Origin: an uncultured Pseudomonadota bacterium
Lineage (GTDB): Bacteria > Oederibacteriota > Muellerivitia > Muellerivitales > Muellerivitaceae
Assembly: GCA_963843375.1 (NCBI GenBank)
Contig: CAWJKT010000006.1
Location: 192,001 to 256,000 of the forward strand
Direction: 5' to 3'
DNA length: 64,000 nt
Notes under the pieces: model-generated
The model's input: the letters and a program-made list of their open reading frames with translations, nothing else
What the model was told of the DNA's origin: nothing
Databases searched by the model: none
Program-made: the position numbers and the translations under genes
Shown here: positions 27,533 to 48,195 of the stretch, piece after piece
Position numbering within the stretch: the first letter of the stretch is position 1
Layout: each line of letters starts with the position of its first letter

Positions 27533-27969
27533 ATTTTATAGATCATTGATTTTCTGATTTTAGCTGGATGGTAATTAAAATGCCGCATTATTCGGAAACT
27601 TAACTATCCTCCAAAACCCGGCCCATTCCCACTTAGTCTTCAGAAAGCCAACGAATTCCTTGGCTTTTGAGAACCTTTCAAAAAAAAACCGGTTTTTCTC
27701 TCAACTGGAATACCAACCCATAATGAATTGGATTGGTTTTGATTTCATTCGTTCTTCCTATTTTGCCTGATTGCTACACCACTAAACTTTATCAATCTTG
27801 GAGAAGCCTTTCGGGCTTATTGGGAATTGGGGCAATTTCGGAATTGACTAAGCGTTCAAAATAACATTTCACTAGCTTTTGGTTTGAATTGGTACTTGGA
27901 ACCCTAAAGGTAGACGATCGGACATACAGTTCTGTTTGGAATTACCATTAGTGAAAAATCCTTTAAATA

Positions 27970-28015
27970 ATGGCGGGGTTGACGGGGCTCGAACCCGCGA
28001 CCTCCTGCGTGACAG
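27970..28015 (-). repeat. att site: 46-bp duplication of the tRNA-Asp 3' half
   Basis: Identical to 35168-35213 (atggcggggttgacggggctcgaacccgcgacctcctgcgtgacag). Confidence 0.95.
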
Positions 28016-28192
28016 TGAGTCGCAAGCTTTTCGCCGACCTCGCCGGTTGAGTTAGTAAAAAAATTCAGTCCCCAGCACAATTTCAAAGGCCTTTGCCTGT
28101 AAGGGTTTTGCCACCCAAGCAAGCGGAGGCCTTTTTTTGTACGCGACGGTCAAGGACACGGTGCGACGGTCAAAACCCGATTTTGACGGTTG

Positions 28193-28313
28193 AGTTTGAC
28201 ACGTATATGACACCAAACGAGCCCTTAACCGGAGAAAAATGACCTCCTGTTTTCCATGGAGGAGGTCAAAATTCAAGCCGTTTTCCTTCCCCCTTGTCAT
28301 ATACGTGTCAAAC
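28193..28313. promoter_or_regulatory. Putative integrase arm-type sites (19-bp perfect inverted repeat)
   Basis: GTTTGACACGTATATGACA (28194-28212) and its reverse complement (28295-28313); 20/21 match to 35101-35121. Confidence 0.65.
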
Positions 28314-28385
28314 ATGCTCACTTATGAGTGGCAAAAGATAACCAACATTTTTGACGTTAACGACAGGTCCCCGTCGTTGAATTTT

Positions 28386-30350
28386 TTAATTTACCGGAGT
28401 GGTTACTGGAGAAAGTTTCATGTGGTGATGTTTGTAATGGATTGCGCCGGGTTGGGCCATTTGATGAATATGTGTAAATTGGCCAAAGGCCGAAGGCCCG
28501 CCTTTTAATGCGGCATTCTTAAGGGCGGACATTACTTTTTCCTGCTCATCTTTTTGATCCGTCCAATTTATTCCTTTGTCCAAAACAATATCCACCCCTT
28601 TAGTTTTATAAAAATCGGGAAAATCGGAGCTTGTATCCATCCACTCTCCGCCAATGTAAGAAAATATCCAAGGCCATTTGATTGATTCGGCCACTTCCTG
28701 AACAATTATTATGTCGTAATGACCATTCTTTCTTAAGTCCAATACCTGATCGCCTGTTTCAGCCGCATCGCATTCAAAGGAAAATAATTTCTGGTTAATC
28801 AAATCCAAATCATAAATATGAATAAACGCACCGCCGGTGTCCCCGTGACGCCAGACTATTATTCGATATTTATCATTACCCAAGGATTCCATTTCCATTC
28901 TATCAACATGATTCATGCTTCCATCGATCAAGAAGGCTTTGTTAGAGTGGTTCGTAGGAATGAAATATAGGCAATTGTAAAAACCCCATAAATACCCCCA
29001 GCTTGTTTCCTGATATCTTTCCAAATCCTCATTCCCACCAACATTGTCTTCCGAAAAATCAAAGCCTAAATCCCCGAGGGTCTTGAAATCCTGTTTAAAT
29101 TTAATGAAATCTTTTTTTGTGTAATTCGTATCTTCAACCGTATCGTCATCGGCTGAATCATCGGTAGTTGGGTCATATTGGGCAATTTTTGCAATCGGAA
29201 GGTTTGCTTCACCAATTGATTTTGCAAATGCCACAAGACTTTGAGATGCTTTTATCATCCTAAATTCATCTTCACCAAAACCAGGAGACGGAGGTGAATA
29301 CTTCCAAAAATCCTTACCAATTTCGCCTTTCTCATCCAAGGTAAAAGGACGAGAAGGTCGAACATTTTGATCGTCTTTTCGGCCCTCATTAACAAAATAA
29401 TTAATATCTTTTTTTAGCAAATCGCCGTTAAACTTCAAAATATTTCCTCCCGCCAAAACCCAAACATCGTTGTTTTTATCTACAGCCAAACCCTCCATCA
29501 GTAATCGATCGCCTACCTTCCATTGGGCGATGAAATCACCATTGGTATCGAACCTTTCAATGCGGCCATTCGCATCAGCAACATAAATGTTATCATCCGG
29601 TCCACATGCGATTGCCCGTGGAAATAATAGGTGTCCTGATTCACCACCCCGCCCCCCGAAAGCACCCAGGCATTCTCCCCCGGAATTAAACTTAAAAATG
29701 AAATCCTCGGCGGTAATAATGTAGACGTCACCTTTTGAATCAAAAGCGAAATCCCACGAATGAAAAACGGTTGGGAAGGTCAAATTTAGTTTGGGTTTAA
29801 GTTCTAAGGTTTTAAGCGGGGACAAATGCTCGTTGAACATAGTAATTTTACAATTACTTTGAAGTACCCAAAGAAACCCACTCGGATCAAACTTAATATT
29901 CATACAAAAGGACAATCTATCCGTTGTTTTATCCGGCCAATTAGAAATCAGTTTTAATGAATTGTCATATTTCGTAATTTTATCTAAACCTAAAAAGTAA
30001 AAATTATTTTTGCTATCAATTGCTGTTTTCTTGTAACCCAACGGCGAACTCGGGTTAACCTTTATTGGGAAAACACTTGTTTTGGTATTCCCTTCAGAAT
30101 CTAAATGAATTAATTCCGAGGTTCTAGAGGTTAAAACAAAAACTTCCCCTGTAGGATCAAGGGCCATACTTGCGAGTGAATCATTAATATCTTTAGATTT
30201 AGCCGATAAAGGAGCAGAAAATACCAACGGGTTCACAAAATCAACTGAAGGTCCACCGGCAGGTTCTTCAGCTCCAAAAAGACGAGAAAAAAGGAAAAAC
30301 AAGGTCAATATTACTAAATGTGGTTTTAAGTGAATATTTTTATGTATCAC
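28386..30350 (-). CDS. Exported NHL-repeat beta-propeller protein
   Basis: Signal-like N-terminus; NHL repeats (FGGRGGESGHLLFPRAIACGPDDNIYVAD, IERFDTNGDFIAQW); acidic C-terminal region. Confidence 0.7.
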   Translation of the reverse strand: MIHKNIHLKPHLVILTLFFLFSRLFGAEEPAGGPSVDFVNPLVFSAPLSAKSKDINDSLASMALDPTGEVFVLTSRTSELIHLDSEGNTKTSVFPIKVNPSSPLGYKKTAIDSKNNFYFLGLDKITKYDNSLKLISNWPDKTTDRLSFCMNIKFDPSGFLWVLQSNCKITMFNEHLSPLKTLELKPKLNLTFPTVFHSWDFAFDSKGDVYIITAEDFIFKFNSGGECLGAFGGRGGESGHLLFPRAIACGPDDNIYVADANGRIERFDTNGDFIAQWKVGDRLLMEGLAVDKNNDVWVLAGGNILKFNGDLLKKDINYFVNEGRKDDQNVRPSRPFTLDEKGEIGKDFWKYSPPSPGFGEDEFRMIKASQSLVAFAKSIGEANLPIAKIAQYDPTTDDSADDDTVEDTNYTKKDFIKFKQDFKTLGDLGFDFSEDNVGGNEDLERYQETSWGYLWGFYNCLYFIPTNHSNKAFLIDGSMNHVDRMEMESLGNDKYRIIVWRHGDTGGAFIHIYDLDLINQKLFSFECDAAETGDQVLDLRKNGHYDIIIVQEVAESIKWPWIFSYIGGEWMDTSSDFPDFYKTKGVDIVLDKGINWTDQKDEQEKVMSALKNAALKGGPSAFGQFTHIHQMAQPGAIHYKHHHMKLSPVTTPVN

Positions 30351-30396
30351 AATGTCGCCTTTTCATTACCGCTATTAACGACTGTTCCCCAGGTCC

Positions 30397-31053
30397 TCAC
30401 TTATTGTTTTCAAATCCCCAACTCAACCAACTCACGTACTGCTCCGTAAGAGTTTCCGATATATCAATTACTGCATCAGCTTCAGCCTTTGTAACGACTC
30501 TTCCATGCAACGCCGCATTACATAAATCCAAAACTTTTCTTGTTAGTTCAAATTGGTTCGGTGTTATTGCTCTATTTAAAATTAGTCTCTTAAGCAAAAC
30601 TCCCGTCGAATCTCTCTCATCAAATTTTAGTTTGAAACCTTTTACGAGGTTTTTAACCATCGTTTCTATTTCCATACGAAGTCCAGCCAAGGCCCAATTT
30701 GGATCTTCATTGGCTAAATTTCTATAGCGTGCCAAATCAAGTCCACTTAATGAAGGTTGTAAACCGGCTTTTATCATTTTTGAATTTGCTTCTGTTAGTG
30801 GGATAGTTGGCGTTTTCTTTGCACCCTTTGGAGGTTTAGGTGGCTTTGTCTTCATCGAGAGCGCTCTCGCCTCTAGAATCTCTTTTTCGAAATCAAGAGA
30901 AACGCCTCCTGGTAAATTGGCTGATTTGATCCTTCCCAGTAATGCCGACAATTGTCGATGAAATAAAATCACCAAAAAAATTACAACAATCGGCCAAATT
31001 AATGCCTTGATATATTCAAGAACCAAATTCGCAATATCAAACCAAGACTCCAT
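30397..31053 (-). CDS. Membrane-anchored protein with HEPN/DUF4145-like helical C-terminal domain
   Basis: TM ALIWPIVVIFLVILF; ALAGLRMEIE...LDLCNAALHG; GGAG RBS. Confidence 0.55.
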   Translation of the reverse strand: MESWFDIANLVLEYIKALIWPIVVIFLVILFHRQLSALLGRIKSANLPGGVSLDFEKEILEARALSMKTKPPKPPKGAKKTPTIPLTEANSKMIKAGLQPSLSGLDLARYRNLANEDPNWALAGLRMEIETMVKNLVKGFKLKFDERDSTGVLLKRLILNRAITPNQFELTRKVLDLCNAALHGRVVTKAEADAVIDISETLTEQYVSWLSWGFENNK

Positions 31054-31137
31054 TTAAGGCTCCTAATAACCTAATCATTCAAGGCAAGACTTTGTCCACT
31101 ATGGGTTCCAGTTATGGACAACCATCTTTTCTGTTTA

Positions 31138-31490
31138 CTACTCTCGTACCCTAACTCGATCTTTTTCAATAATCCACAATCTCTGGTTCACCTGTTCCTT
31201 GGCTAATAAATCCAAAACAGGGCGAAATAGTTCAACCATTGTGGGCTTATCCTGACGGTCTGACCGGATCACCATAATTCCAGGGTATTTATCGGGCGGG
31301 TAGGCTCGGATATCGGAGAAATCCAGGTCACAGGTGATGAAGGCCCTGCCTTCTTTGGCGCAAACTGCCGCTAAATTCGTGTCGGGATTTCCGGTTAAGC
31401 CTTGGTCATTCACCGTAAGGGCGTCATGGCCGGCTTGTGTCAAAAAATGCTTTATTTCAAAGGGGAGGTTTTCGTCGATTTTGAACTTCA

Positions 31491-31491
<1 letters not shown>
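31138..31491 (-). CDS. DUF5615 PIN-like toxin
   Basis: MKFKIDENLP, GHDALTV, PDTNL, RAFITCDLDF. Confidence 0.85.
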
Positions 31492-31754
<263 letters not shown>

Positions 31755-31824
31755 CTATTCCTCTTTGAAAGCCACCCATGGAACTATAAGACCCAACCAA
31801 AAGCTAAATAAGCCCCCTCTGATG

Positions 31825-32379
31825 TTAACTTTCCCGGCCCCCCGGCACAAGGCCGGACGGGGCGCCGGGAAAGTTAAAGCCAGGTTTCGAAATCAAATTT
31901 CATCACAAAAACATAAAGAGCCGACCTTCAGCCTTTGTGCCAATTCGCCTTTTAATTGGCACAAATGGTTGCCCCGCAAGTCGGCTCCAAAGCCAAAGAA
32001 TGAAATTTGATTAAGAAACCATCCATCACCTTAACCCAAACTCTAACCCCTTAATTCCCTAACTACCCCAACCATGTCAGCCAAAACATAACCCCCAAAC
32101 TAATTACCCCATTAAAACCTTCTAACACCCGCCAATCTTTTCCACCTACCCACCCATTTACACCTACCCTGATATACCCCACCTACTACCTCTGAATACT
32201 GCTCCGGTTTGCCTTGCCTTGCTCTTGAATCTGATTTGAATTTGAATCTGTCTCATTCTCGATTTTTAAAAATAACGTCTTCTGGTTTTCCCATGCGGAG
32301 AGGGCGAGCCCCCCTATCGTTTCTCGCATCCGTACTTGATGCAGAGATAGGGGGGCTCGCCATCGGAGCATGGGAAAAC
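31825..32379. other. Structured non-coding block: three long hairpins and a nearly G-free tract (candidate origin region)
   Basis: IRs at 31825-31877, 31934-31965 and 32285-32379; C/A-rich tract at ~32016-32192. Confidence 0.6.
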
Positions 32380-32464
32380 ACCCCCTTTTAAACCGAAAAA
32401 TGAAAATTTGGAGTTCCGTCCGAATGAAAGACCGAATGAAATGATTTCCACGGCCAACGGGGTG

Positions 32465-33352
32465 TTATTCCGACAAGGGACGACTTATCTGGAACCAGAC
32501 TCTCTCAAATGGCAGGGTCGTTACCCGGCCAAAGTCGCTTACCAACCACTTGGACCGGTCCCTTTCCATGACCCAAGCTTGCAGGTAGCGGATCATCCGC
32601 CGGGAGTGGGGATAGGTTTCCGAGACGACAAGCCGCCAGGCCTGGGGAAAGGCGTCGTCCAGGTTGTAGACCATCCGCTGGACCATGTTCCAGTGATAGG
32701 CCGTCCGTTCGAATTCCAGGACAAAGGCCCTCCTCTCCCCCTGGAAGTCGGCCTCGAAGTATCCGTCCGGCGTCCTTCGGACCAAGGACTTGGCCCTTTC
32801 ATAGGCCCTAACCCGCCAGTTCCTTTCCAGCTCCCCATTGAGGAATTCGGCCTTGGTTCGCGGGGTGATACCGGCCCGCATTTCGAAGTCGCTGACCCAA
32901 AAGATGTCTTCCAGGGTAGGGGTGGCCTCCAAGGTGATTCTTAGCTCCTGAACCATAAGGTCATGCTGTCTCTCGTAGGGGTTGATTCGGATGGGGTGTT
33001 TTCGGCCCATGACAATCATCCGCCCTGTCTCGTCCAGGGTACGGATGGCCGGAAGGGTCAGGAAGTAGAAGTTATGCGCGAACATATTTTCCTTTTCAAA
33101 AAGCAGAAAACCTTTTTTGACGTATTTGCTGAGGACGTAACAGGCGTTTCGGTAGGTGCCTTGGGGATAAAACTTTTTTTGGAAAAGCTGTGGGATGGTG
33201 AACTTGTTGGAGTGAATCCAGGCGAGGTGTTGGGCTTCGGTATCGTTGATTTCCAGGTATTGGCTCACGGGCGGCTTCCTTGCAGGGAGATTGCCTTCAT
33301 GCCTTTTGGACGATTCATTTCTCCTTTCCCTCCCAAAAATTTTAAGTGTCAT
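32465..33352 (-). CDS. Replication-relaxation (Replic_Relax-like) protein
   Basis: N-terminal wHTH-like region, QHDLMV, and RTPDGYF...FVLEFERT PD-(D/E)xK-like core. Confidence 0.7.
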   Translation of the reverse strand: MTLKIFGRERRNESSKRHEGNLPARKPPVSQYLEINDTEAQHLAWIHSNKFTIPQLFQKKFYPQGTYRNACYVLSKYVKKGFLLFEKENMFAHNFYFLTLPAIRTLDETGRMIVMGRKHPIRINPYERQHDLMVQELRITLEATPTLEDIFWVSDFEMRAGITPRTKAEFLNGELERNWRVRAYERAKSLVRRTPDGYFEADFQGERRAFVLEFERTAYHWNMVQRMVYNLDDAFPQAWRLVVSETYPHSRRMIRYLQAWVMERDRSKWLVSDFGRVTTLPFERVWFQISRPLSE

Positions 33353-33786
33353 AAAAATCTATTGCGTCCAATCCATGGTCATCCATGGTTAACGATGGTT
33401 ACGGAGAATGCTCATAAAGCATCACTACCGATCACAAGTGGCAGTCAGCGGCAGTAAGTGACGGTCAGTGACATTTCAAAAAATTATTTACTTTTCAAAG
33501 AAACGTTTAGGGTCGCAAAACAGTCAAAAGAAATATCACAAAGTACGGCGGTGACGGATGACACGAACAATTTGAATTTCAGATTTTGCATTTAAAGGGC
33601 GATTACTGCCCCGAAGATTTCGCCCTCGCAAGTTGTTCCGCTTCGACAACCAAAAACAAAATTCCAAGTCAATCAGCCCGGAGAATCCCCCAAACCTTGA
33701 ACGCTTCACAACCCAATTTTCCACCCCTCCAAAGAGGACTCCTAGGAGGGTCTTTTATTTTAAATTTTGAAAAAGGGAGGTAGGTC

Positions 33787-34041
33787 ATGGTGGATCGCAG
33801 AAAGAATATCGAGCGGCGGAATTTCCTAATGTCGGACAAAGACATTGCCGAAAAAGCCGGTGTTTCCCCCAATACCGTCCGCTATTGGCGGCAGACCGGC
33901 ATCCTCCCTTTCGTGAAGGTCGGCAAGTATCCGAGGGTTTGGCATTCGGTGTTCCTGCAAGTTTTTAAAATACCCCTTTCATCTTGGACGGACCCTGCTG
34001 ATAAAATGCCAAGTGCTGGGGACATTAGGAGGGACGAATGA
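33787..34041 (+). CDS. Excisionase-like HTH DNA-binding protein
   Basis: DIAEKAGVSPNTVRYWRQTGILPFVKVG; GGAGG RBS; ATGA overlap with the integrase. Confidence 0.8.
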   Translation: MVDRRKNIERRNFLMSDKDIAEKAGVSPNTVRYWRQTGILPFVKVGKYPRVWHSVFLQVFKIPLSSWTDPADKMPSAGDIRRDE

Positions 34042-35153
34042 GTAGACCTAATGTTCATGGATTGCCCCAATTTCTCCGCAAGGACGAAAAGGGGTATTTC
34101 CTGGATTACTTCGTTGAAGAAGGGGGAATCAAAAAGCGCAAGAGGGTGAGGCTGGGCCAGATACCCGTGGCCCAAGCCAAGAAGGTGCTGGCCCAACACA
34201 TGCAAGAAATGGTGGAGTGTAAGTACTTGGCTCCCGAAAAACCGGAGGTCACTTTTTCCGAGGCGGCGGATTCGTTCCTGGCCTATTCCGAGGCAAGAAG
34301 GAAAAGCCATGAGAACGACATCCAGATGGTCAAGAGGCTCAAGGACTATTTCGGCAACAGGCCCTTGCGAAGCTTGACGCCCGATGTGGTGGAGGGGTTC
34401 TTGACTCACCGGCGGAAGGTGGGCAACCAGGCCCCCGGCGAGCAGAGGACGGGAAAGCCCCTATCCAATAGCACGCTGAACCGGGACCTCGGCGTTCTCA
34501 AGAGCATCGTGAACCGGGCGGTCTTCAACGGCTTGTTGGAGAAAAACCCGATTCAGCGGGTGCGGGCCTTCAAGGAAGAATCCCGCGACCGCACCTTGAC
34601 GAACGAGGAATACCAAGCCCTTTTGGGTTATTGCTCCCCGCGCCTTTCCGCCATCGTCCAGTTGGCTTATTGGACGGGCATGAGGAAGGGGGAGATTTTG
34701 GGTTTGCGGTGGGAACAGGTGGACTTTCAAAACAAGGTCATCATCCTGGAAGCCGCGGACACCAAGACCCAGGAGAAACGGGAGGTTCCCTTGACGGAGG
34801 CCCTAGCGAGCCTCTTGAAACGGATACCCAAAACCCTGGGATGCCCCCAGGTTTTCACCGAGAGGGGAAAGCGCATCCTCGACATCAAGACCGCTTTTCT
34901 CAAGGCCGTCCGCGCGGCGGGGATCAAGAACTTCCGGTTCCATGACCTCCGGCATTGCGCGGTCACGAACCTAAGAAAGGCGGGGGTGAACGACTCGGTC
35001 ATCATGTCCATATCGGGCCATAAGACCTACGCGATGTTCAAACGGTATAACCGGATCGACCGGCAGGACCGGGTGAACGCGCTGAAGCAGGTTGAGAGGC
35101 AGTTTGACACGGATATGACACGGAGCGGGTCCGGGCAGTTGGTGAAGTCGTAG
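34038..35153 (+). CDS. Tyrosine recombinase / phage-type integrase
   Basis: TGMRKGE, TKT, RFHDLRH and SGHKTYAMFKRY catalytic residues; adjacent to the tRNA 3' end. Confidence 0.95.
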   Translation: MSRPNVHGLPQFLRKDEKGYFLDYFVEEGGIKKRKRVRLGQIPVAQAKKVLAQHMQEMVECKYLAPEKPEVTFSEAADSFLAYSEARRKSHENDIQMVKRLKDYFGNRPLRSLTPDVVEGFLTHRRKVGNQAPGEQRTGKPLSNSTLNRDLGVLKSIVNRAVFNGLLEKNPIQRVRAFKEESRDRTLTNEEYQALLGYCSPRLSAIVQLAYWTGMRKGEILGLRWEQVDFQNKVIILEAADTKTQEKREVPLTEALASLLKRIPKTLGCPQVFTERGKRILDIKTAFLKAVRAAGIKNFRFHDLRHCAVTNLRKAGVNDSVIMSISGHKTYAMFKRYNRIDRQDRVNALKQVERQFDTDMTRSGSGQLVKS

Positions 35154-35168
35154 AATCGTTGAAAAATA

Positions 35169-35246
35169 TGGCGGGGTTGACGGGGCTCGAACCCGCGACC
35201 TCCTGCGTGACAGGCAGGCGCTCTAACCAAGCTGAGCTACAACCCC
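35169..35246 (-). tRNA. tRNA-Asp (GTC)
   Basis: Full cloverleaf GGGGTTG..CAACCCC, anticodon loop CTGTCAC, TTCGA loop, encoded CCA. Confidence 0.97.
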
Positions 35247-35394: not shown

Positions 35395-38300
35395 TTAAGA
35401 AACGGGCTGTGGGGCTAATTCTTTGACGGGTTTTTGAATTCTGAACTTCTTCACCGAAAATCGTGACATGGAGTTCTTCGTGATGCTCTTGGCGGAAAGC
35501 TTGTAGAGATACTCGCCGTCGAGTTTTCCCGCAGCGTCCCAAATGGTCACGGCATAAGCTCCGCCTTCCCTTTTCTCCTCAACTTTCCCCACTAAGCCGC
35601 CCGTTGAATCAAAGACTTCCAAAGTCACGTTGCAGTCTTCTTTCAGAAAATAGTAAAAACGCAAGGGTCCGGGCTTGGGAGGCTGGGGAAAAATTCCCAT
35701 ATCTTCCGTAAAGACCGCGTCTTCAAGTACTTCATCCACCGAGATCGTGATGTCCTTTATGCGCAAAACCGGAAACTGGTCGCTGTAAAGACGAATCTCG
35801 TATTTTCCCTCGGGAAGACCCGAAAAGTTGAAATGTCCTTTGGGATCGGTCATCACCGTGGCCGCCACTTTATCACCTTTCATCATTTCTAATTTAGTGC
35901 CGGAAATGGGGGTCACCCCGTCCTTGCGGAGGAATGTTCCATAAACCTTGCCCAACCGCTGGATTTTCACCCGACGCCGCGAGGACAGGAGTCCGGGCTT
36001 GCCCTTTTTCCCGACCGCCGCGACGTGGAAATACCAGGTTCCTTCCTGGATGTCCCTTAATTGGATCGAACGTTCGGTGGTGAACTGGTCTTCGGAAGTA
36101 AGCGTTTCGATTTCGTTGGAGCTAAATTTATAAATATATCCCACGGGTTTATAACTGCCATCGTGCCGGTCATCCCAGGTGAAAAGGGGTTCATAGTGGT
36201 TGACCGCCTCATCCTCCGCCGGATGGGTGGGGCTTGACACCACCGGGGGAGGCATTTCCCCCGCCGCGACAAGGGCCATAAAATGGGTAGGCTCGGAAAG
36301 ATTACCCGCCTTGTCCTTGACCACCGCGTGAAAGTACCAAACTCCGGGCTCGGAGGATTTCAAGCTCACGATATTTTCCGTCGTCCTTTGGGCCTCGTTG
36401 GGTAGGGGCCGGGTGTCCGCCTTGCGGTCAAAAACATAATAGAAGCTCTCAACCCCTGACAATTTTGGGGCCGAGGCCATGTGAAACTCCAGTTTGTTGG
36501 AGGCGTACCAACGCTGCGAATCGGGATGAGTGGTTGAGGTGACCTGGGGAGCGGAAGGTTTGGAAAGGTCAATTTTGAGTCGGTAATGGGCCGCCTGTTC
36601 GCTGATATTGCCCGCTTTGTCCTTTGCGATCAGATGGAAATACCAAATGCCGCCTTCTAGGTTGGATAATTCCATTCGTCGGCCATCCACGAAATTGGAA
36701 GCTTCCGCCGTGGGTTTAGCGTTGGGGCTTTGATCCAAAAGATAATAGTAACCGGCGATGCCGGTGGCGTCCGCAGGGGCGTCCCAAATGAGAACGGGTG
36801 AGTTATGTGAGCTCCAGTCATCGCTGGAATGGGTGGGACTAGTGACCGTTGGAACCCCCACGCCATGGTCCGAAAGGGAAGCCGCCGTGGTGTTACCCTC
36901 ATGCTGTTCGTTGCCCATCCGGTCCACGGCCTGGATGCAATAATAGTAAACTGTGTTTTCTTTAAGCCCATCGCCCTTATCCGTGAAAACCGTTGTCTTG
37001 ATTTCCCCGTCAGTGGAGATTTTTTCTTTCTTGCCGCCTTCCAGCCACCGGTAGATCCGGTAATAGTCGGTGCCGGAAACCTTGTCCGCGACCGGGTTCC
37101 ATTTGAGTTCAATGTCTCCCCCCGTCTTGGGTGTAGCCTTTAACTGGGTAACCGCCGCCGGGGGTGAGATATCCGGGGTGGTGGCGGCCATCTCGCTCTC
37201 GGGGTAGAGTTCCAAGTTGCCGGCGTTGTCTTTGGCTCGGCATCGAAAGGCGTGCCGCTTTCCATCCTGCCCCTGGTAAACACCGTTGGATTCGGTCACG
37301 TTGGTCAGCCAGTCGGTCCAAGAGCCGTTATCGGTCTTGACCTGGACATCGTAAGAAGAGATGCCGCTATGAGCGTCGGTAGAACTCCATTCAAGGTAAA
37401 CCTGGGTCTTGTCCAACATGGCCGCAAGGGGTTTCATTTGAGACTTGGGTGCCGCGGTATCGATCAAGATGGGATAGTGAGCCGCTTCCTTCCCAACGTT
37501 ACCTACCATATCTTTCACGTTAACGTGGAAGAACCATTTACCATCCTTGAGAGCCGGGGCCGTAAGGGATGTTTCGGTGACCCACTTGCCATTTCCCGGT
37601 CCCGGTATGGTATGGGGTTGAGAATCGAGCGCGAGGTAATAACCTTCCACTCCCGATTGCTCCCGGGGTGGGTCCCACATGAATTTCGGGGCTGTCGTCT
37701 TAACCCATTGGTTTGGGGGATGGGTGGAGCTTTTGATAAAAGCTACCCCCGCTTCACTGTCTATCCGCATCTTGAAATGGGCGCAAGCGCTGACGTTTCC
37801 CGCCTTGTCCTTGGAACATACATGGAGGAACCAGATGCCATCTTCCGCGACCGTGGCAATGGTTCCCCGCCCCGTGGTCCAGGTCATGGATTTCAAGTCG
37901 GCAGTCCAGTTCTCGTCGCCGTTGAGCGCGTAGTAATAACCATCGATGCCCGAAAGGTCTCCGGGATCTTTCCACACGAATTCCACTCGCCGGGTTCCAT
38001 ACCACTTTTCGGGCAAGGAATGACTGGGTGACGAAACAACCGGGCTTTCGGCAATCGTGTCCAGACGGACGCGGAAAGTGGCAACTTCCTTTGATATATT
38101 CCCCGCCACGTCCTGGCAAACCACTGAAAGGATATGCACCCCGTCCCGAGGAATATCCAGGTTGATTTCGTTCTTATCCGTAAAGGAAGAAGATCTGGGA
38201 TCGGGGGTAATTTGGGGGTCTTCGGAAAAGGTGTAATAAAAACCCGTGATCCCCGAAAGATCATCGGGCGGCGTCAGTTTAAACACCGCCTTGGGCTTGG

Positions 38301-40968
38301 AATACCATTGTTCCTGTTCCGGGTGGCTGGGGGAGGAGACAAAAGCCCTAGCTACCTCCGTATCCACGTGCAGGGGGTAATGCACCGCCTTCCAATCCAC
38401 GTTGCCCGCCTTGTCCTTGGTGGTGATGTGGAAGTACCAAAGTCCGTCGTCGGTGAGTTCGAAGGAAACCATGCGCTGGCTGGTAAAAAGGGAGTTTTTG
38501 TCGTTGGGTACCGTATCGGCCTTGCGATCGATGTTGTAGTAATATCCCTCGATTCCGGAATGTTCGAATGGGTCCTCCCAATTCAAAACCACCCGTCGGT
38601 CCCGGTACCAGTGGGTCGTTTCCGAATGGGTGGAGGAAGATACCTGGGGCGGGCTGACCAAGGTATCGACGCAGATTTTGATATGCCCCGCCTGGGGAGA
38701 AATATTTTCGGCCTTATCCTTGGTGCGGACATGAACGAACCATTGGCCGTCCTGAATCTCGTCAAAGGTGATCTTGGTCTTTTCGGTCCATTGAGCATTC
38801 TCCGGATCCGGCAGGGTCATGGGGTCGTGGTCAATGCAGTAATAATATCCTTCCACACCTGAAAGGTCGTGGGGAGGGTTGATATGAACTTCCACTTTGT
38901 TGTTGGAATACCATTGGTCGCTCTGGGGATGGCTGGTGGAAGAAAGAGTAGGGGCCAAGGCTTTGGTGTCGATGCGAATGGGGTAATGGGAGGCCCGGAT
39001 ACCCACGTTGCCGGCCTCATCCTGGGTGGAGATGTGCAGGTACCAAAAGCCGTCCTCGAAGGGCCCCAGCGTCTTGCGGGTTTCCTGCGTAAAATCCCCC
39101 GCTCCCGGGCCCGGTACGGTGGTCGGCTCGTGATCGGCTTTTATGAAATAGCCTTTGATGCCCGATAAGTCCTTGGGTGTTTCCCAAGAAATAACCGGAG
39201 TGGGATTGGCAACCCACTTCTCGCTCTCGGGATGAGTAGAACTAGTCACCTTGACTGGCGGGGCCGCCTCCGTATCCACCAGAATCTTGAAATGGGAGGC
39301 TTGGCTCCCAATATTTCCCGCTTCATCCACTCCCACCACGTGGAAGTACCAGGTTCCCTGGGGGGTTGAGGAAAGAGCTACCCGCTTGTCCTCGGTATAA
39401 GAGGCTTCGGGCGGAGCGGGTAAAGTTTCGGGATAATGGTTCAAAAGGAAATAATAGCCCCGCAGCGGGGTGAGCGAATGCAGAAGGATTTCAATATCAC
39501 TGTTTTTCTCCCATTTCCCCGGATGAGAATGGGTGGGAGAGGTGATAGAGGGTGGCGGAACGCTCGGCGTAAAAAATGAAGCCGTCTCGCTCACCGAGAG
39601 CGAGGAAGTGCGATAGGCGCTTACCACCTTGAATTCATACTCGGTTTCGGATTTCAAGTCGGTCAAATGAATCCGGTGCCGTAATTTCATTCCCTTATCA
39701 ATGATGACTTTGCGTAAATCCTGATCTTCTTTTTTCTCGCCGTAATGGACTTCGGAAGTGGCGGAAATGTCGGTGGTCCAGGTAAGAAGAGCGCTGGAAG
39801 AGGAAAGCCTTTCCACCGTTAATTCCGAGATCGCCGGCATTCGGGCCATGTCAAAGGTGGAGCGTATAAGAGTGCCTCGGTTTTCGGTTCCAGCATAAAG
39901 GTAGTCGCCGAAAAGGGCGAAGGCCCGGACGCCCTCCTCATCGCCGGCAAAAGCCGTTTTCCAATCGGTCCCTTCGCTGGTCTTTAAAACCCTTCCCGAG
40001 TTGCCAGTCCCGGCGTAAAGAGCGTTCTCGAAAACTTCCATGCAGTAGAGGTTCAATTCACGGGCCGTCTCGTAAACGCATAGCCAGTCCAGACCGTTTT
40101 CGGTTCGGTAAATTTTCACGCCCTTGGGGCTGGAGGTTCCAGCGTAAAGGGCCCCGTTGAATTCCTGAAAGCACTGGATGAAATTCTGTCCCGTGGCGGT
40201 CATTTCCTCCCAATTAAATCCATCGGTGGAGGCGAAGATAAGCCCGCTGGGATAGGTGCCCGCGAAAATTTGGTCGTTGAAAATACCCAGGCAGGTGACG
40301 GCCACCTCGCTGAGGGAACCCACGGTGTTCCATTGGGTTCCGTCATAGGCGTATATCTTGCCTTTGGAACTGGTGCCCGCGTAAAGCCTTCCCTTGAATT
40401 CCAAGAGGGAATGGATGCGGTCCTCATCGGTGGTAAAGGCTTCCTTCCAATTTTCCCCATCGGTAGTCTGGTAGATACCGCCGTTGAGGTTGGTTCCGGC
40501 GTAAAGGACGGCTTCCTTGCCGGGAGAGGCGTAGACGCAAAGGCAGTAAATCTGGGTGACATAATCCCCCTTGCCTTCCTTGGCGTCCCCGACGGTGGAG
40601 AAGAACTTGGGATTCATTTGGGTAACGGGGATTTTTTTCCAGGAACCCGGCGCGCCGCTGCTGGATCGAAGGATCAGGTCCTGTCCCGTGGCGGCATAGA
40701 GATAACCCCGGTACTCCACCAAATCGTAAATAGTGGTAATGCCCTTGAATTCCTCAAGGCTTTCGAAAAAAGCGGGCGTGGCGGAGGTGAAATAAAGGTC
40801 GATGACGTTTTTGAGCTGTTCGAGGGCTTCTTTGGGGGTCTTACCCTGGGCCTGACAACCGGGAAGAAGCGAACAGCGGGCCACCACGTTGCCATGGGCG
40901 CGGGTTTCCAGTTCAATGGGAAACTCGTAAGGAAAATATTTTTTTTGGATTTTTTCTTCTTTTTTCAA
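35395..40968 (-). CDS. 1857-aa protein: HicB-like N-terminus, beta-propeller, FN3-like domains, ten ~98-aa repeats, carboxypeptidase-regulatory-like and FlgD/T9SS-CTD-like C-terminus
   Basis: ARCSLLPGCQAQGKTPKEALEQL; repeated F.G.LYAGT blades; repeats S.THP..W..DLSG..GYYY..G.WYFHV..DKAGN. Confidence 0.8.
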   Translation of the reverse strand: MKKEEKIQKKYFPYEFPIELETRAHGNVVARCSLLPGCQAQGKTPKEALEQLKNVIDLYFTSATPAFFESLEEFKGITTIYDLVEYRGYLYAATGQDLILRSSSGAPGSWKKIPVTQMNPKFFSTVGDAKEGKGDYVTQIYCLCVYASPGKEAVLYAGTNLNGGIYQTTDGENWKEAFTTDEDRIHSLLEFKGRLYAGTSSKGKIYAYDGTQWNTVGSLSEVAVTCLGIFNDQIFAGTYPSGLIFASTDGFNWEEMTATGQNFIQCFQEFNGALYAGTSSPKGVKIYRTENGLDWLCVYETARELNLYCMEVFENALYAGTGNSGRVLKTSEGTDWKTAFAGDEEGVRAFALFGDYLYAGTENRGTLIRSTFDMARMPAISELTVERLSSSSALLTWTTDISATSEVHYGEKKEDQDLRKVIIDKGMKLRHRIHLTDLKSETEYEFKVVSAYRTSSLSVSETASFFTPSVPPPSITSPTHSHPGKWEKNSDIEILLHSLTPLRGYYFLLNHYPETLPAPPEASYTEDKRVALSSTPQGTWYFHVVGVDEAGNIGSQASHFKILVDTEAAPPVKVTSSTHPESEKWVANPTPVISWETPKDLSGIKGYFIKADHEPTTVPGPGAGDFTQETRKTLGPFEDGFWYLHISTQDEAGNVGIRASHYPIRIDTKALAPTLSSTSHPQSDQWYSNNKVEVHINPPHDLSGVEGYYYCIDHDPMTLPDPENAQWTEKTKITFDEIQDGQWFVHVRTKDKAENISPQAGHIKICVDTLVSPPQVSSSTHSETTHWYRDRRVVLNWEDPFEHSGIEGYYYNIDRKADTVPNDKNSLFTSQRMVSFELTDDGLWYFHITTKDKAGNVDWKAVHYPLHVDTEVARAFVSSPSHPEQEQWYSKPKAVFKLTPPDDLSGITGFYYTFSEDPQITPDPRSSSFTDKNEINLDIPRDGVHILSVVCQDVAGNISKEVATFRVRLDTIAESPVVSSPSHSLPEKWYGTRRVEFVWKDPGDLSGIDGYYYALNGDENWTADLKSMTWTTGRGTIATVAEDGIWFLHVCSKDKAGNVSACAHFKMRIDSEAGVAFIKSSTHPPNQWVKTTAPKFMWDPPREQSGVEGYYLALDSQPHTIPGPGNGKWVTETSLTAPALKDGKWFFHVNVKDMVGNVGKEAAHYPILIDTAAPKSQMKPLAAMLDKTQVYLEWSSTDAHSGISSYDVQVKTDNGSWTDWLTNVTESNGVYQGQDGKRHAFRCRAKDNAGNLELYPESEMAATTPDISPPAAVTQLKATPKTGGDIELKWNPVADKVSGTDYYRIYRWLEGGKKEKISTDGEIKTTVFTDKGDGLKENTVYYYCIQAVDRMGNEQHEGNTTAASLSDHGVGVPTVTSPTHSSDDWSSHNSPVLIWDAPADATGIAGYYYLLDQSPNAKPTAEASNFVDGRRMELSNLEGGIWYFHLIAKDKAGNISEQAAHYRLKIDLSKPSAPQVTSTTHPDSQRWYASNKLEFHMASAPKLSGVESFYYVFDRKADTRPLPNEAQRTTENIVSLKSSEPGVWYFHAVVKDKAGNLSEPTHFMALVAAGEMPPPVVSSPTHPAEDEAVNHYEPLFTWDDRHDGSYKPVGYIYKFSSNEIETLTSEDQFTTERSIQLRDIQEGTWYFHVAAVGKKGKPGLLSSRRRVKIQRLGKVYGTFLRKDGVTPISGTKLEMMKGDKVAATVMTDPKGHFNFSGLPEGKYEIRLYSDQFPVLRIKDITISVDEVLEDAVFTEDMGIFPQPPKPGPLRFYYFLKEDCNVTLEVFDSTGGLVGKVEEKREGGAYAVTIWDAAGKLDGEYLYKLSAKSITKNSMSRFSVKKFRIQKPVKELAPQPVS

Positions 40969-41159
40969 CCCAACCCACCTGAGTTAAAGCAATGTCGTAA
41001 AGGTATTGTCGCCGGAATCGCCAGCCAAGGGGACTATTTTAATCAAAGGCCCGAAGGTTGACAGTAACATTATCAACCGGTAATTCATCAGGAATGAGAG
41101 CGATTAGGGGGGGCATTCTCATATTCATGGGGCTTTAGCGGAACAGGGATCTTCTCGAC

Positions 41160-41690
41160 CTAGGGGGTACTGGAATCCAAATCGGTCGCTTCCGGTTTCA
41201 ATTCGGCGAAGGTCCTCAAAACCTCGGTGGTTAGATCCACCCCGTTTTTGACGCCGACCACATCATTCTTATTCAGCACCAGGGCGATTTGGTATTTCTT
41301 GGCGATCCCGATTATAACGTCCTTGATGCGGACCGTCAGCTTTTCCATCATTTCCTGGTTGCGCTCTTGCAATTCGTTCTGGATGCGGTTTTTCTCTTCC
41401 TGATAGTTCTGGTTTGCTTCCTCGAACTCTTTTTCCTTCTGCTTTCTTTCCCGGCTGGACAAGGCGCCCTTCGGGTCGCTCAGTACCCCTTGAAGGTCTC
41501 TCAAGGCCGATTCCAAATCGGCCAAATCCTGCCTTTTCTCCTGGGCTAATTCGTCAAACTTCTTCTGGGCCTTGGTGGTTCCGGGATATTGTTTGTAAAG
41601 TTCCTGCATATCCACGACGCCCACCACAAAATCTTTCGCCGTCGCCGCCGACGCGGCCAGAAAGAAACACAAAAGGATCAGGAAGCGCAT
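41160..41690 (-). CDS. skp: OmpH/Skp periplasmic chaperone
   Basis: Signal peptide, VGVVDMQEL, coiled coil, IAKK..IALVLNK..VDLTTEVL. Confidence 0.8.
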   Translation of the reverse strand: MRFLILLCFFLAASAATAKDFVVGVVDMQELYKQYPGTTKAQKKFDELAQEKRQDLADLESALRDLQGVLSDPKGALSSRERKQKEKEFEEANQNYQEEKNRIQNELQERNQEMMEKLTVRIKDVIIGIAKKYQIALVLNKNDVVGVKNGVDLTTEVLRTFAELKPEATDLDSSTP

Positions 41691-41832
41691 AAGACATCCT
41701 CTCAAAAAGATTGAAATTCCATCCGAAACTTCGCTCGATAGAATAACCCCAATTTTTGTTTTGAGTAGTAAAAAAACTTAGAAAGCGGAATTTTCTTTCC
41801 CCTTATCTAATCTAAGTGCAGGACGGTTAAAT

Positions 41833-44577: not shown

Positions 44578-45570
44578 TTAATTGATAACGACAATGGGGA
44601 TGCCTTTGGCCATATAGGACAAACTTTTCTGGGCGGGCACATAGCCTTGGTCCGCTGATTTTTGAAAGAATTCTTTCGCCTTATTCAAATCCTTGTCGAC
44701 TCCCTCTCCCTGCTGGTAACAGGCGCCCAGGTAAAACTCGCCTTTGGGGTCGCCTTGATCCGCAGCCTTCCGGTACCAATTGAATTCTTCATGATAATCC
44801 CGGTTAACGCCAAGACCCTTTCGATAAAGGCTGGCCATGGACGTTTGGGCATAGGGGTTTCCAGCATCGGCGCTCTTCCTTATCCATTGGACGCCCGAAT
44901 TGACATCTTTGGGGATTCCAAGGCCTATGAGATAGTGGGTTCCCAACTGGGCTTCCCCGGCGGTATTGCCCGATTCCGCCGCTTTTCGAAACAAGGAAAC
45001 CGCGCCGCTATAATCCTCTTTTTGTTCATCCACCATGCCTTGGGACACCCAAGAGTCCGCTTCGTCGCTCCCCCTATCGGCAAGATGATTGGTAAAAACG
45101 GGAATATTTTTTTTCTTGTCTTCTTCAGCCGCGGTTATGGAGGCTAACCTCTTCAGGGCGTTTTCCGCCCCGATAAACCCCTGCTGAAGGGCCGTCTGAT
45201 AATATTTCTTGGCTTCCCCCAGGTTCAGAGCCACACCCCAGCCGTTCTCATAACAGCTTCCCAGGTGAAACTCGCTCCTGGAGTCTCCCTGATCCGAAGA
45301 CTTGCGGAACCATTTCACCGCCAGCTGCTCGTCAACCCTGACGCCCTGACCCGTCAAGTAACAATAACCCAGGTGATACTGCGCCTCCGAATTACCGGCT
45401 TCGGCGGCAATCCGGAACCATTGGAATGCCTTGCCATATTTCCCCATTTTTTGGGCGTCCAAACCCTTTTGCAGAATCCCATTGACTCCGCTTTGGGCGA
45501 AGGCTGCGTTTTTTCCTGATCCCAAAAGGCTCAGGGCCAAAACCAACCCCAGAAGCGCTCGTTTCATCAT
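44578..45570 (-). CDS. Sel1-like repeat protein, exported
   Basis: Signal peptide; repeated AQY.LG..Y..G.GV..D...A..W.RK.A..G. Confidence 0.88.
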   Translation of the reverse strand: MMKRALLGLVLALSLLGSGKNAAFAQSGVNGILQKGLDAQKMGKYGKAFQWFRIAAEAGNSEAQYHLGYCYLTGQGVRVDEQLAVKWFRKSSDQGDSRSEFHLGSCYENGWGVALNLGEAKKYYQTALQQGFIGAENALKRLASITAAEEDKKKNIPVFTNHLADRGSDEADSWVSQGMVDEQKEDYSGAVSLFRKAAESGNTAGEAQLGTHYLIGLGIPKDVNSGVQWIRKSADAGNPYAQTSMASLYRKGLGVNRDYHEEFNWYRKAADQGDPKGEFYLGACYQQGEGVDKDLNKAKEFFQKSADQGYVPAQKSLSYMAKGIPIVVIN

Positions 45571-46836: not shown

Positions 46837-48195
46837 TTATCGTGAATGCGCAACCGACCCAAAGAGATTGGCGACTTTGTGGTTTTCGATATTAACCCAA
46901 ACCTTGTCCCCCGCTTTGTACCCTTTTCCTGGAAAAACAACGGTGCGGTTTTGGCGGCTTTTGCCGTAGAAAGCGTTAGGCGTCTTGTCCGCCGGGCCTT
47001 CAACGAGCACTTCCTCGATCCTGCCCAGGCGGGCCTCGCAACTTTCAAAAGCGTGCTTCCAGGCCTTCTCATTGAGCCGGGCCAACCGCTCATCCTTCAC
47101 TTCCTCCGGCACTTGATCCAGCATCCGTGCCGCGGGCGTTCCGAGCCGCGGGGAGTATTTAAAGCTATAGACGGCGTCATATCGGACTTGATCCAGCAAA
47201 TCCAAGGTCTGCTGAAAGTCTTCATCCGTTTCCCCGGGGAATCCGATAATAAGGTCGGTGGTGATAAAAAGATCCTGGATGGAGGATCTAAGCTTTTGAA
47301 CCCGTTCCAGGTAATGGGCCACGTTGTATTTGCGGCTCATCCGCTTCAACACTTTGTCCGATCCGCACTGCACCGGCAAATGAATGGACTCGCAAACCGA
47401 GGGCACCCTGGCCATGACTTCCACCAACTCATCGGATAAATCCAGTGGATGGGAAGTCATAAAACGCACCCGCTCGATCCCTTCCACTCCGCCCACTTGT
47501 CCCAATAGCTCCGGGAAGGTGATCGTCTTGGCCCTTCGACTTCAACCCCAATCCATAGGAATTCACGTTCTGGCCCAGCAGCATGACTTCCTTCACGCCC
47601 GCCCTCGCAATCGCCTGTAATTTCCTCCAGAATACTCTCGGTGGGGCGGGAAACTTCCCGGCCCCGGGTAAAAGGAACCACGCAAAAGGTGCAGAACTTA
47701 TCGCAGCCCTTCATGATTTCAATAAAAGCCCGGTGGGGCTGGGAAAGCCGGGACGGGATCGTTCTGCGGGAAATAAACCGGGTCGAAATCCGCCAGCACC
47801 TGGCTTTGGCCCGTCCTGAAGCCTCCCGGATGACCTGGGGAACCTTTAAATATTGGTCGGGTCCCACCACCATGTCCAAATGGGGCGCCCTTTCCATCAA
47901 TTGGTCTTTATAGCTGGTAGCCATACAGCCCAGGACGCCGATGACCCGGCCTTCCCTGCCGCGTTTCCAATCGGCCAGTTGGCCCAGGCGGGAAAAAACC
48001 TTGTGTTCGGCGTGGTCGACGGATGGAACAGGTGTTAAAGAGAATGACGTCGGCTTCTTCAATCGATTGGGTCATGGAAAAATCGTTTTTGAGGAGAAGG
48101 CCCGTGACGTGGTCCGATTCCAGAACGTTGGACTGGCATCCAAAGGTTTCCATAAAAACCTTTTTTTCTTTCGTTTTCGCGGTCAAAGTTTCCAT
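46837..48195 (-). CDS. miaB: tRNA methylthiotransferase MiaB (several apparent frameshifts)
   Basis: TFGCQSN, NTCSI, GVLGCMA, GCDKFCTFC radical-SAM motif, TDLIIGFPGET, TRAM-like C-terminus. Confidence 0.9.

Follow-up and report, generated by a model that had tools for sequence, protein, structure and literature searches.

A domain with the fold of HicB antitoxins stands at the head of a giant protein, where a signal peptide would be, and continues in the same frame into a body of the type found in exported proteins. The fusion is a single-copy core gene, present in 68 of the 71 genomes that represent 17 families of a single phylum (candidate division FCPU426 by record titles, equated with Goldbacteria in PMC7031533) and in 0 of the 28 genomes from the phylum's other six families. 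The architecture is new as a class, because the protein departs in a defining feature from HicB antitoxins, T9SS cargo, flagellar axial proteins and type I adhesins; its mechanism we infer. The explanation that we favour, and rate as somewhat short of probable, is that the protein is a cytoplasmic rod which pairs with itself through a domesticated HicB fold. The exported-type body would stay in the cytoplasm, the rods would pair head-to-head through the HicB fold into a two-armed scaffold, and the propeller and the tail may bind partners. A beta-sandwich module is about 4 nm long, and about 15 of them would give a chain of roughly 55-60 nm. Our leading guess, drawn from co-occurrence only, is that the partner would be the cytoplasmic side of a flagellin-less motor or of a T9SS-like machinery. 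Against a cytoplasmic rod it has to be said that the tail, which is among the best-kept domains within its own family (72-92% identity), would also suit an export role.

The gene and its domains are listed in Table 1, with positions counted in the window, i.e. the whole stretch of 64,000 nucleotides that was analysed. An initial annotation, made from the letters of the window, had described an in-frame run from a HicB-like domain into a propeller; this fusion is real, since the open reading frame is intact and independent contigs across the junction revealed no indel. The junction was checked because the assembly has frame breaks elsewhere (in miaB). It is spanned, with 0 mismatches and 0 gaps, by contigs of the runs X2 (40564-41238), X3 (40319-41074) and X4 (39970-40828), which belong to study P2 and not to the possible source of the assembly; run X6 had no coverage there. 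An assembly artefact or a split gene is therefore ruled out by the intact frame, the bridging contigs and the orthologues that are in one frame. The miaB-like gene itself (UPF0004, radical SAM, TRAM; window 46837-48195) is split over three frames, probably by sequencing indels, and is whole (about 450 aa) in relatives.

Table 1. Coordinates of the giant gene, its domains and its promoter elements in the window.
Feature	Position	Strand	Description
Whole gene	35395..40968	-	1857 aa; starts with TTG and is uninterrupted by stops; the genome has one copy
HicB/UPF0150-fold head	40783..40935	-	residues ~12-62; three strands and a helix; position 54 is Asn (typically Glu/Asp in stand-alone HicBs)
Beta-propeller	39853..40773	-	residues 66-372; no enzyme family assigned
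Fn3-like domain	39565..39843	-	residues 376-468; Pur_ac_phosph_N match, E 9e-7
Seven ~100-aa beta-sandwich repeats (THP..W..GYY..WyfH..D.AGN)	37459..39564	-	residues 469-1170; Big_13 match
Two Fn3-like domains	36871..37458	-	residues 1171-1366
Three further repeats	35956..36870	-	residues 1367-1671; all-beta in the structure model
CarboxypepD_reg/SdrD_B-like domain	35695..35955	-	residues 1672-1758
FlgD-Ig/T9SS-sorting-like tail	35425..35691	-	residues 1760-1848; homologous to tails of the host's signal-peptide-bearing cargo proteins
Sigma70-like promoter CTGTCA-17-TAAAAT	41036..41064	-	-10 region seen again at loci of the same family
Operator-like palindrome GGTTGATAA-N5-YTRTCAACC	41056..41078	.	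23 bases; overlaps the -35 element; sole match in this genome

The domains lie in the order in which they had first been placed (propeller, Fn3, repeats, two Fn3, repeats, CarboxypepD_reg-like domain, tail). The ten repeats are indeed arranged as seven plus three, but their period is 99-101 aa, not the ~98 aa of the initial annotation. Residues 1-12, ahead of the head, are predicted to be disordered, and the structure model of the N-terminus has three strands and a helix at 18-62 and the propeller at 66-372. The best structural matches of this model (head and propeller) are generic propellers, with the propeller filling the list, and an atlas look-up of residues 1-470 returned a best score of 0.82, a lead only. 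The top Foldseek rows of the C-terminal model are tandem Ig/Fn3 chains with a TM of only 0.17-0.28.

The HicB-antitoxin-like domain that had been proposed at residues ~10-60 was confirmed by the profile matches of 21 orthologues, by PDB matches and by the model. The head of this protein alone (residues ~12-62) gives weak, sub-cut-off matches against Pfam (HicB_lk_antitox E 0.055, UPF0150 E 0.013); among the 21 orthologous N-termini, 11 match HicB_lk_antitox and 14 match UPF0150 (E<=0.01). A profile of the orthologous N-termini, compared with the PDB, matches 4 sequences at E<=1, all of HicB/UPF0150 type (2dsy, 6g1c, 6g1n and 2yzt; E 1e-4 to 2e-3), and several homologues bear the source name 'predicted RNase H-like HicB family nuclease'. 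The N-terminal partial RNase H fold of HicB antitoxins is present in the head according to both the profiles and the model. HicB N-domains are described in PMC6159526 and PMC11594946 as forming homodimers via strand 1 and helix 1. The corresponding hydrophobic positions are well kept: 16, 18, 52, 56 and 60 in 70 of 70 fused heads and 49 in 66 of 70 (vs 23 of 44 stand-alone HicBs), while 59 is hydrophobic in 49 of 70 and the others of strand 1 and the helix in 66-70 of 70. Because these dimer-forming positions are kept, and HicBs are homodimers in solved structures, self-pairing is probably the simplest retained function of the head. When 20 fused and 28 stand-alone heads were placed in a tree, a single branch, with bootstrap not settled, split the two groups, save one very long-branched stand-alone row.

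For the residues that touch the toxin we compared 70 fused heads with 45 distinct stand-alone HicBs, taken from 51 loci (50 around hicA matches, and the host's own hicB); the compared sequences are kin, so that the counts below are not independent. Position 54 is Glu or Asp in 35 of 41 aligned stand-alone HicBs, whereas Glu occurs there in only 2 of the 70 fused heads (P0128, P0146); the host's own stand-alone HicB is among the 6 of 41 without it. Likewise, position 40 is Ser or Thr in 30 of 44 stand-alone HicBs vs 7 of 70 fused heads. In the HicB of S. pneumoniae, as described in PMC6159526, Thr33 and Glu47 hold the catalytic His of HicA, and the E47A variant loses neutralisation, which frees the toxicity. 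We equate positions 40 and 54 with Thr33 and Glu47 by the shared spacing of 14 residues and by the Glu at 54 in two solved HicBs, not by an alignment of the S. pneumoniae sequence. The HicA family (PF07927) has no match in this genome (80% complete), and none of the HicA matches listed for 41 genomes is closer than 60 kb to the fusion gene, which agrees with the initial annotation, where no hicA had been seen nearby. Because of the missing linked hicA and the replaced acidic helix residue, the head, although it has the fold of HicB, is probably not an antitoxin, and a fold co-opted as an oligomerisation or targeting module, which the initial annotation had offered as one of its two readings, fits the evidence of these comparisons.

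Its other reading, a HicA-type partner bound in trans, is disfavoured. In the fuller form of this explanation the giant protein would serve as antitoxin or as defence sensor and keep a HicA-type RNase bound until infection releases it, which we consider very improbable. It would account for the HicB fold, HicA genes are found in 19 of 33 carriers, and the host has a stand-alone hicB with a short frame before it; but the remaining 14 carriers have no HicA match, 8 of them at 97-100% completeness, and four carriers (97-99% complete) without a HicA match are also without a stand-alone HicB. Moreover, 68 of 70 fused heads have another residue in place of the key Glu, and the steady single-copy inheritance of the fusion is unlike that of toxin-antitoxin modules (HicA matches range from 0 to 13 per genome). 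An orphan hicA as partner was looked for in genome searches and none was found. It is less improbable, yet still unlikely, that the HicB surface has been redirected to another protein or to RNA or DNA, in which case the head would be a sensor or an autoregulatory module and would not pair with itself. The retention of the fold alongside changed HicA-contacting residues would suit such a change, as would the palindrome on the promoter, which is unique in the genome; HicAB operons are described as autoregulated at such repeats (PMC11594946). Its 18 exact matches in 99 genomes all lie within about 200 bases upstream of the giant gene, but only part of family f1 has the palindrome in this exact form. 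In addition, no Pfam match to an RHH or HTH domain is found in the 1857-aa protein (HicB antitoxins are small proteins with or without one), and the head is near neutral (mean charge -0.5) and not basic.

The two remaining explanations take the protein out of the cytoplasm. In one of them it would leave through a flagellar export gate that has no flagellin to carry, the HicB fold being an export handle, a chaperone site or a plug, and the tail would then engage PorV/SprA-like machinery or an enlarged FlgK tip. We regard this as rather unlikely. The carriers mostly have FlhA with flagellin undetected, PorV-family genes in the cluster and an enlarged FlgK (see below), the giant gene adjoins porV in four genomes, and no carrier is proven to be without the gate; all of them, however, belong to a single clade, where co-occurrence is uninformative against any core gene. 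A terminator and an own promoter separate the gene from porV in two of the four genomes (G033, G039), the neighbours in the other families examined are housekeeping genes, and no sigma28 site is conserved in 49 upstream regions (one suggestive site is seen in the window). Models of both ends of the protein have no terminal coiled-coil helices, FlgK, FlgE and FliK are far less charged in G001, and the tail is unrecognisable in family f5. The least likely explanation, in our opinion a very remote one, is a giant adhesin of the LapA/SiiE style, secreted by a type I system and held in the periplasm by the folded HicB head as a retention plug. Such adhesins have no signal peptide either, and the tandem Ig-like repeats with a DxAGN motif (Big_13) would be in keeping with it; but the protein has no match to an RTX family, no transporter genes (ABC/MFP/TolC) are seen beside the gene, the repeat number is mostly 10 across families, and the composition is unlike that of exported proteins.

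Returning to the cytoplasmic rod, its location has to be judged from the protein itself. In a hydropathy scan, none of 45 orthologue sequences (some duplicates included) showed a hydrophobic signal or membrane segment, so that the lack of a signal peptide noted at the outset extends to the whole set. The host has 70 proteins of at least 300 aa with a similar tail, 60 of them with a hydrophobic N-terminus, and the tail of the giant protein is homologous to theirs (HHalign probability 95%, E 3e-8). A tail-only model recovers the giant protein weakly in the host genome (E 0.003), an iterated tail search of the genome drifted to Thr/Pro linkers and did not recover it, and the tail of the orthologue P0029 matches FlgD_ig (E 3e-5) and Por_Secre_tail (E 6e-4), both below the cut-off. 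Relatives of the repeat outside the clade often start with a hydrophobic segment, and one protein (P0054) combines a signal, propellers, the repeat and the tail. The body therefore appears to derive from exported proteins, because its tail is homologous to those of cargo and the outside relatives of its repeat are often signal-bearing.

The composition of the giant protein differs from that of the cargo. Lys, Arg and Glu make up 16.7% of its residues vs 6.2+/-2.0% in the 70 tail-bearing proteins, none of which is as high (0/70), and their share exceeds that of the same genome's FlgK in 20 of 20 genomes; in G001 it is 16.5% vs 3.6% in FlgK, with FlgK, FlgE and FliK spanning 3.6-5.4%. However, a charged-residue content as high as that of the giant protein is reached by 83 of the 243 signal-peptide proteins that have no such tail, and a classifier trained on all signal-peptide proteins (AUC 0.91) gives it a score of 0.78 for 'exported', so that composition is also compatible with the periplasm. 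Periplasmic FlgI, with 9-18% of the three residues, overlaps the giant protein, and cysteine parity does not separate it from cargo (p=0.29). Given the missing export signal and a composition unlike that of the host's exported proteins, the cytoplasm would be the simplest reading.

About 70 host proteins combine a signal peptide, a Thr/Pro-rich linker and a T9SS-like tail, and PorV-family paralogues are present as well. SprA_N has weak matches in 20 of 99 genomes, none of them the host, in frames of mostly 1,850-2,220 aa. These matches occur in carriers and non-carriers alike, so a co-distribution of SprA with the giant gene was rejected. Taken together, the tail-bearing proteins, the PorV paralogues and the SprA_N matches suggest a T9SS-like system outside the Bacteroidota.

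The fusion was found again when other genomes were searched for homologues, as the initial annotation had proposed. A profile of head and propeller matched 66 of 99 genomes, or 65 after G018, a propeller-only match, was dropped, and the whole profile is matched in one frame in 61 genomes; in two of these the match opens with a stop, and the frames are 1845-1846 aa long. In G014 and G016 the gene has frame breaks, and in G076 and G082 it runs off the contig; in G016 the frame is broken at the junction and also in several other places. Six genomes of the carrier families had no match to this profile; five of them were searched again with a profile of the C-terminal part, which located the gene at the start of a contig in three. 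Head identity is 51-96% among members of the order and 20-35% when distant families are compared, and the other domains behave similarly. Repeat numbers of 13, 14 and 16 also occur; the length of the protein is therefore not fixed. Outside the clade, head and propeller were not found together among the best 150 of 32,946 profile matches, where only clade proteins covered both, and the head was present in 55 of 261 collected proteins, all orthologues.

FlhA is found in 62 of the 71 carrier-family genomes but in only 7 of the 28 others, all of which have flagellins, whereas Flagellin_N has no match in 66 of the 71; the five carrier-family genomes that do match have a second set of FlhA and FlgK. 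Five near-complete genomes gave no match to Flagellin_N (E<=0.05), to Flagellin_C or, over the cut-off, to FliD, and four gave none to FliS or FliW; the flagellin-bearing control G037 did give such matches. The cluster contains the export gate, the motor (MotAB), rings, rod and hook, FlgB to FlgK, FliA/FlgM/FlgN and PorV-family genes, and its FlgK is mostly 690-900 aa long vs about 470 aa in flagellin-bearing clusters. In G033 and G039 the giant gene comes after flgK-cargo-porV, with a terminator and a separate sigma70-like promoter between porV and the giant gene; in G068 and G069 it comes after porV. No carrier was shown to lack the flagellar system: the cluster of G013 ends at a contig end, and G022 is also without both flanking genes, so these gaps look like assembly gaps; the genome of G008 is 65% complete. 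PMC13277936 reports for FCPU426 a loss of about 35% of ancestral flagellar genes. We rate as doubtful the wider idea that this lineage rebuilt its flagellum as a filament-less rotary machine of motor, hook, enlarged FlgK and PorV-family proteins, of which the HicB-headed rod would be a dedicated part or substrate, its domesticated antitoxin fold linking surface proteins of the T9SS-like kind with a flagellar motor or export gate. The flagellar link is a lead only, because all carriers form one clade and any clade-specific core gene would give the same pattern.

It is instructive to compare the giant protein with the known systems. With the HicB antitoxins (COG1598/PF15919; PDB 6G1N, 4P78) and the UPF0150 proteins (TTHA0281, 2DSY; TTHA1756, 2YZT) it shares the fold of three strands and one helix with the LPG...G motif. 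In contrast to HicB antitoxins, its head is fused to 1,800 residues, has no DNA-binding domain, no linked hicA and a replaced acidic helix residue, and its gene is core rather than patchy. The 14 classes described in a survey of HicA contexts, which started from HicA, include no HicB-giant fusion (PMC10865869). Type A cargo of the T9SS (PF18962/FlgD_ig PF13860) is similar in its homologous tail and in the propeller, Fn3 and CarboxypepD modules that are typical of exported proteins, and the host has PorV-family genes; the giant protein differs in having no signal peptide, no Thr/Pro linker and 2.7-fold more charged residues. The type I Ig-repeat adhesins LapA, SiiE and BapA are likewise large and signal-less with tandem Ig-like repeats, but the giant protein has no RTX match, no neighbouring exporter, a near-constant repeat number and a T9SS-like tail. 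In the way it might work, although we claim no homology, the bacterial protein resembles filamin and titin, which are intracellular chains of beta-sandwiches where an end module may dimerise. Among the papers listed by full-text searches, largely outside the subscription journals, none dealt with the giant protein, with a fusion of HicB to a propeller or with flagellar clusters of this phylum that have no flagellin.

A toxin-antitoxin domain that is fixed in a core gene of 17 families after an apparent loss of its antitoxin contacts is a clear and testable case of domestication, and the head, with 60 residues, is small enough for an assay in E. coli. Beyond this, the protein draws attention to a still unexplored side of the cell biology of an uncultured phylum: export-type modules make up a rod of 200 kDa that carries no export signal, in cells that have retained the motor and hook of a flagellum but in which flagellin is not detected.

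Several further observations concern the host and its relatives. The host's stand-alone hicB (72 aa; L063 1210-1680, G000:C14) lacks the usual Glu, and the 70-codon frame before it has no Pfam match; this frame, which we take to be HicA-like in its look, may be frame-broken. The cluster without detectable flagellin, FlgL, FliD, FliS and FliW extends across 17 families; in the host it is represented by L141 (G000:C25) and in G001 by L127-L128 and L146 (C4), with equivalents in L129-L155 and L162-L181. Stand-alone flgK/flgD sets (L180, G012:C7; L182-L183, G022:C20, the latter with flgE too) lie among tail-bearing cargo genes and away from the main cluster of flagellar genes; they belong to the genus in which the giant protein has 16 repeats. 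The palindrome was also considered as a dif site and rejected, since there is no GC-skew inversion there.

In its own family the gene stands in the order miaB, SPOR/TPR gene, mutS, giant gene, tRNA-Asp, and its neighbours vary by family. An integrated element lies at the tRNA-Asp (35169-35246), in the window at about 27900-35153, with a tyrosine integrase, an HTH gene, a DUF433/DUF5615 pair and a DUF4145 gene; a stretch like the 3' part of the tRNA-Asp recurs near 27900-28100. An island-borne origin of the giant gene was rejected, since this element lies on the far side of the tRNA-Asp and 68 of 71 genomes have the gene. Genes of the OmpH/Skp-like and Sel1-repeat type (window 41160-41705 and 44578-45570) flank mutS and are not common to the loci of most relatives, and the gap between mutS and the giant gene is a variable slot.
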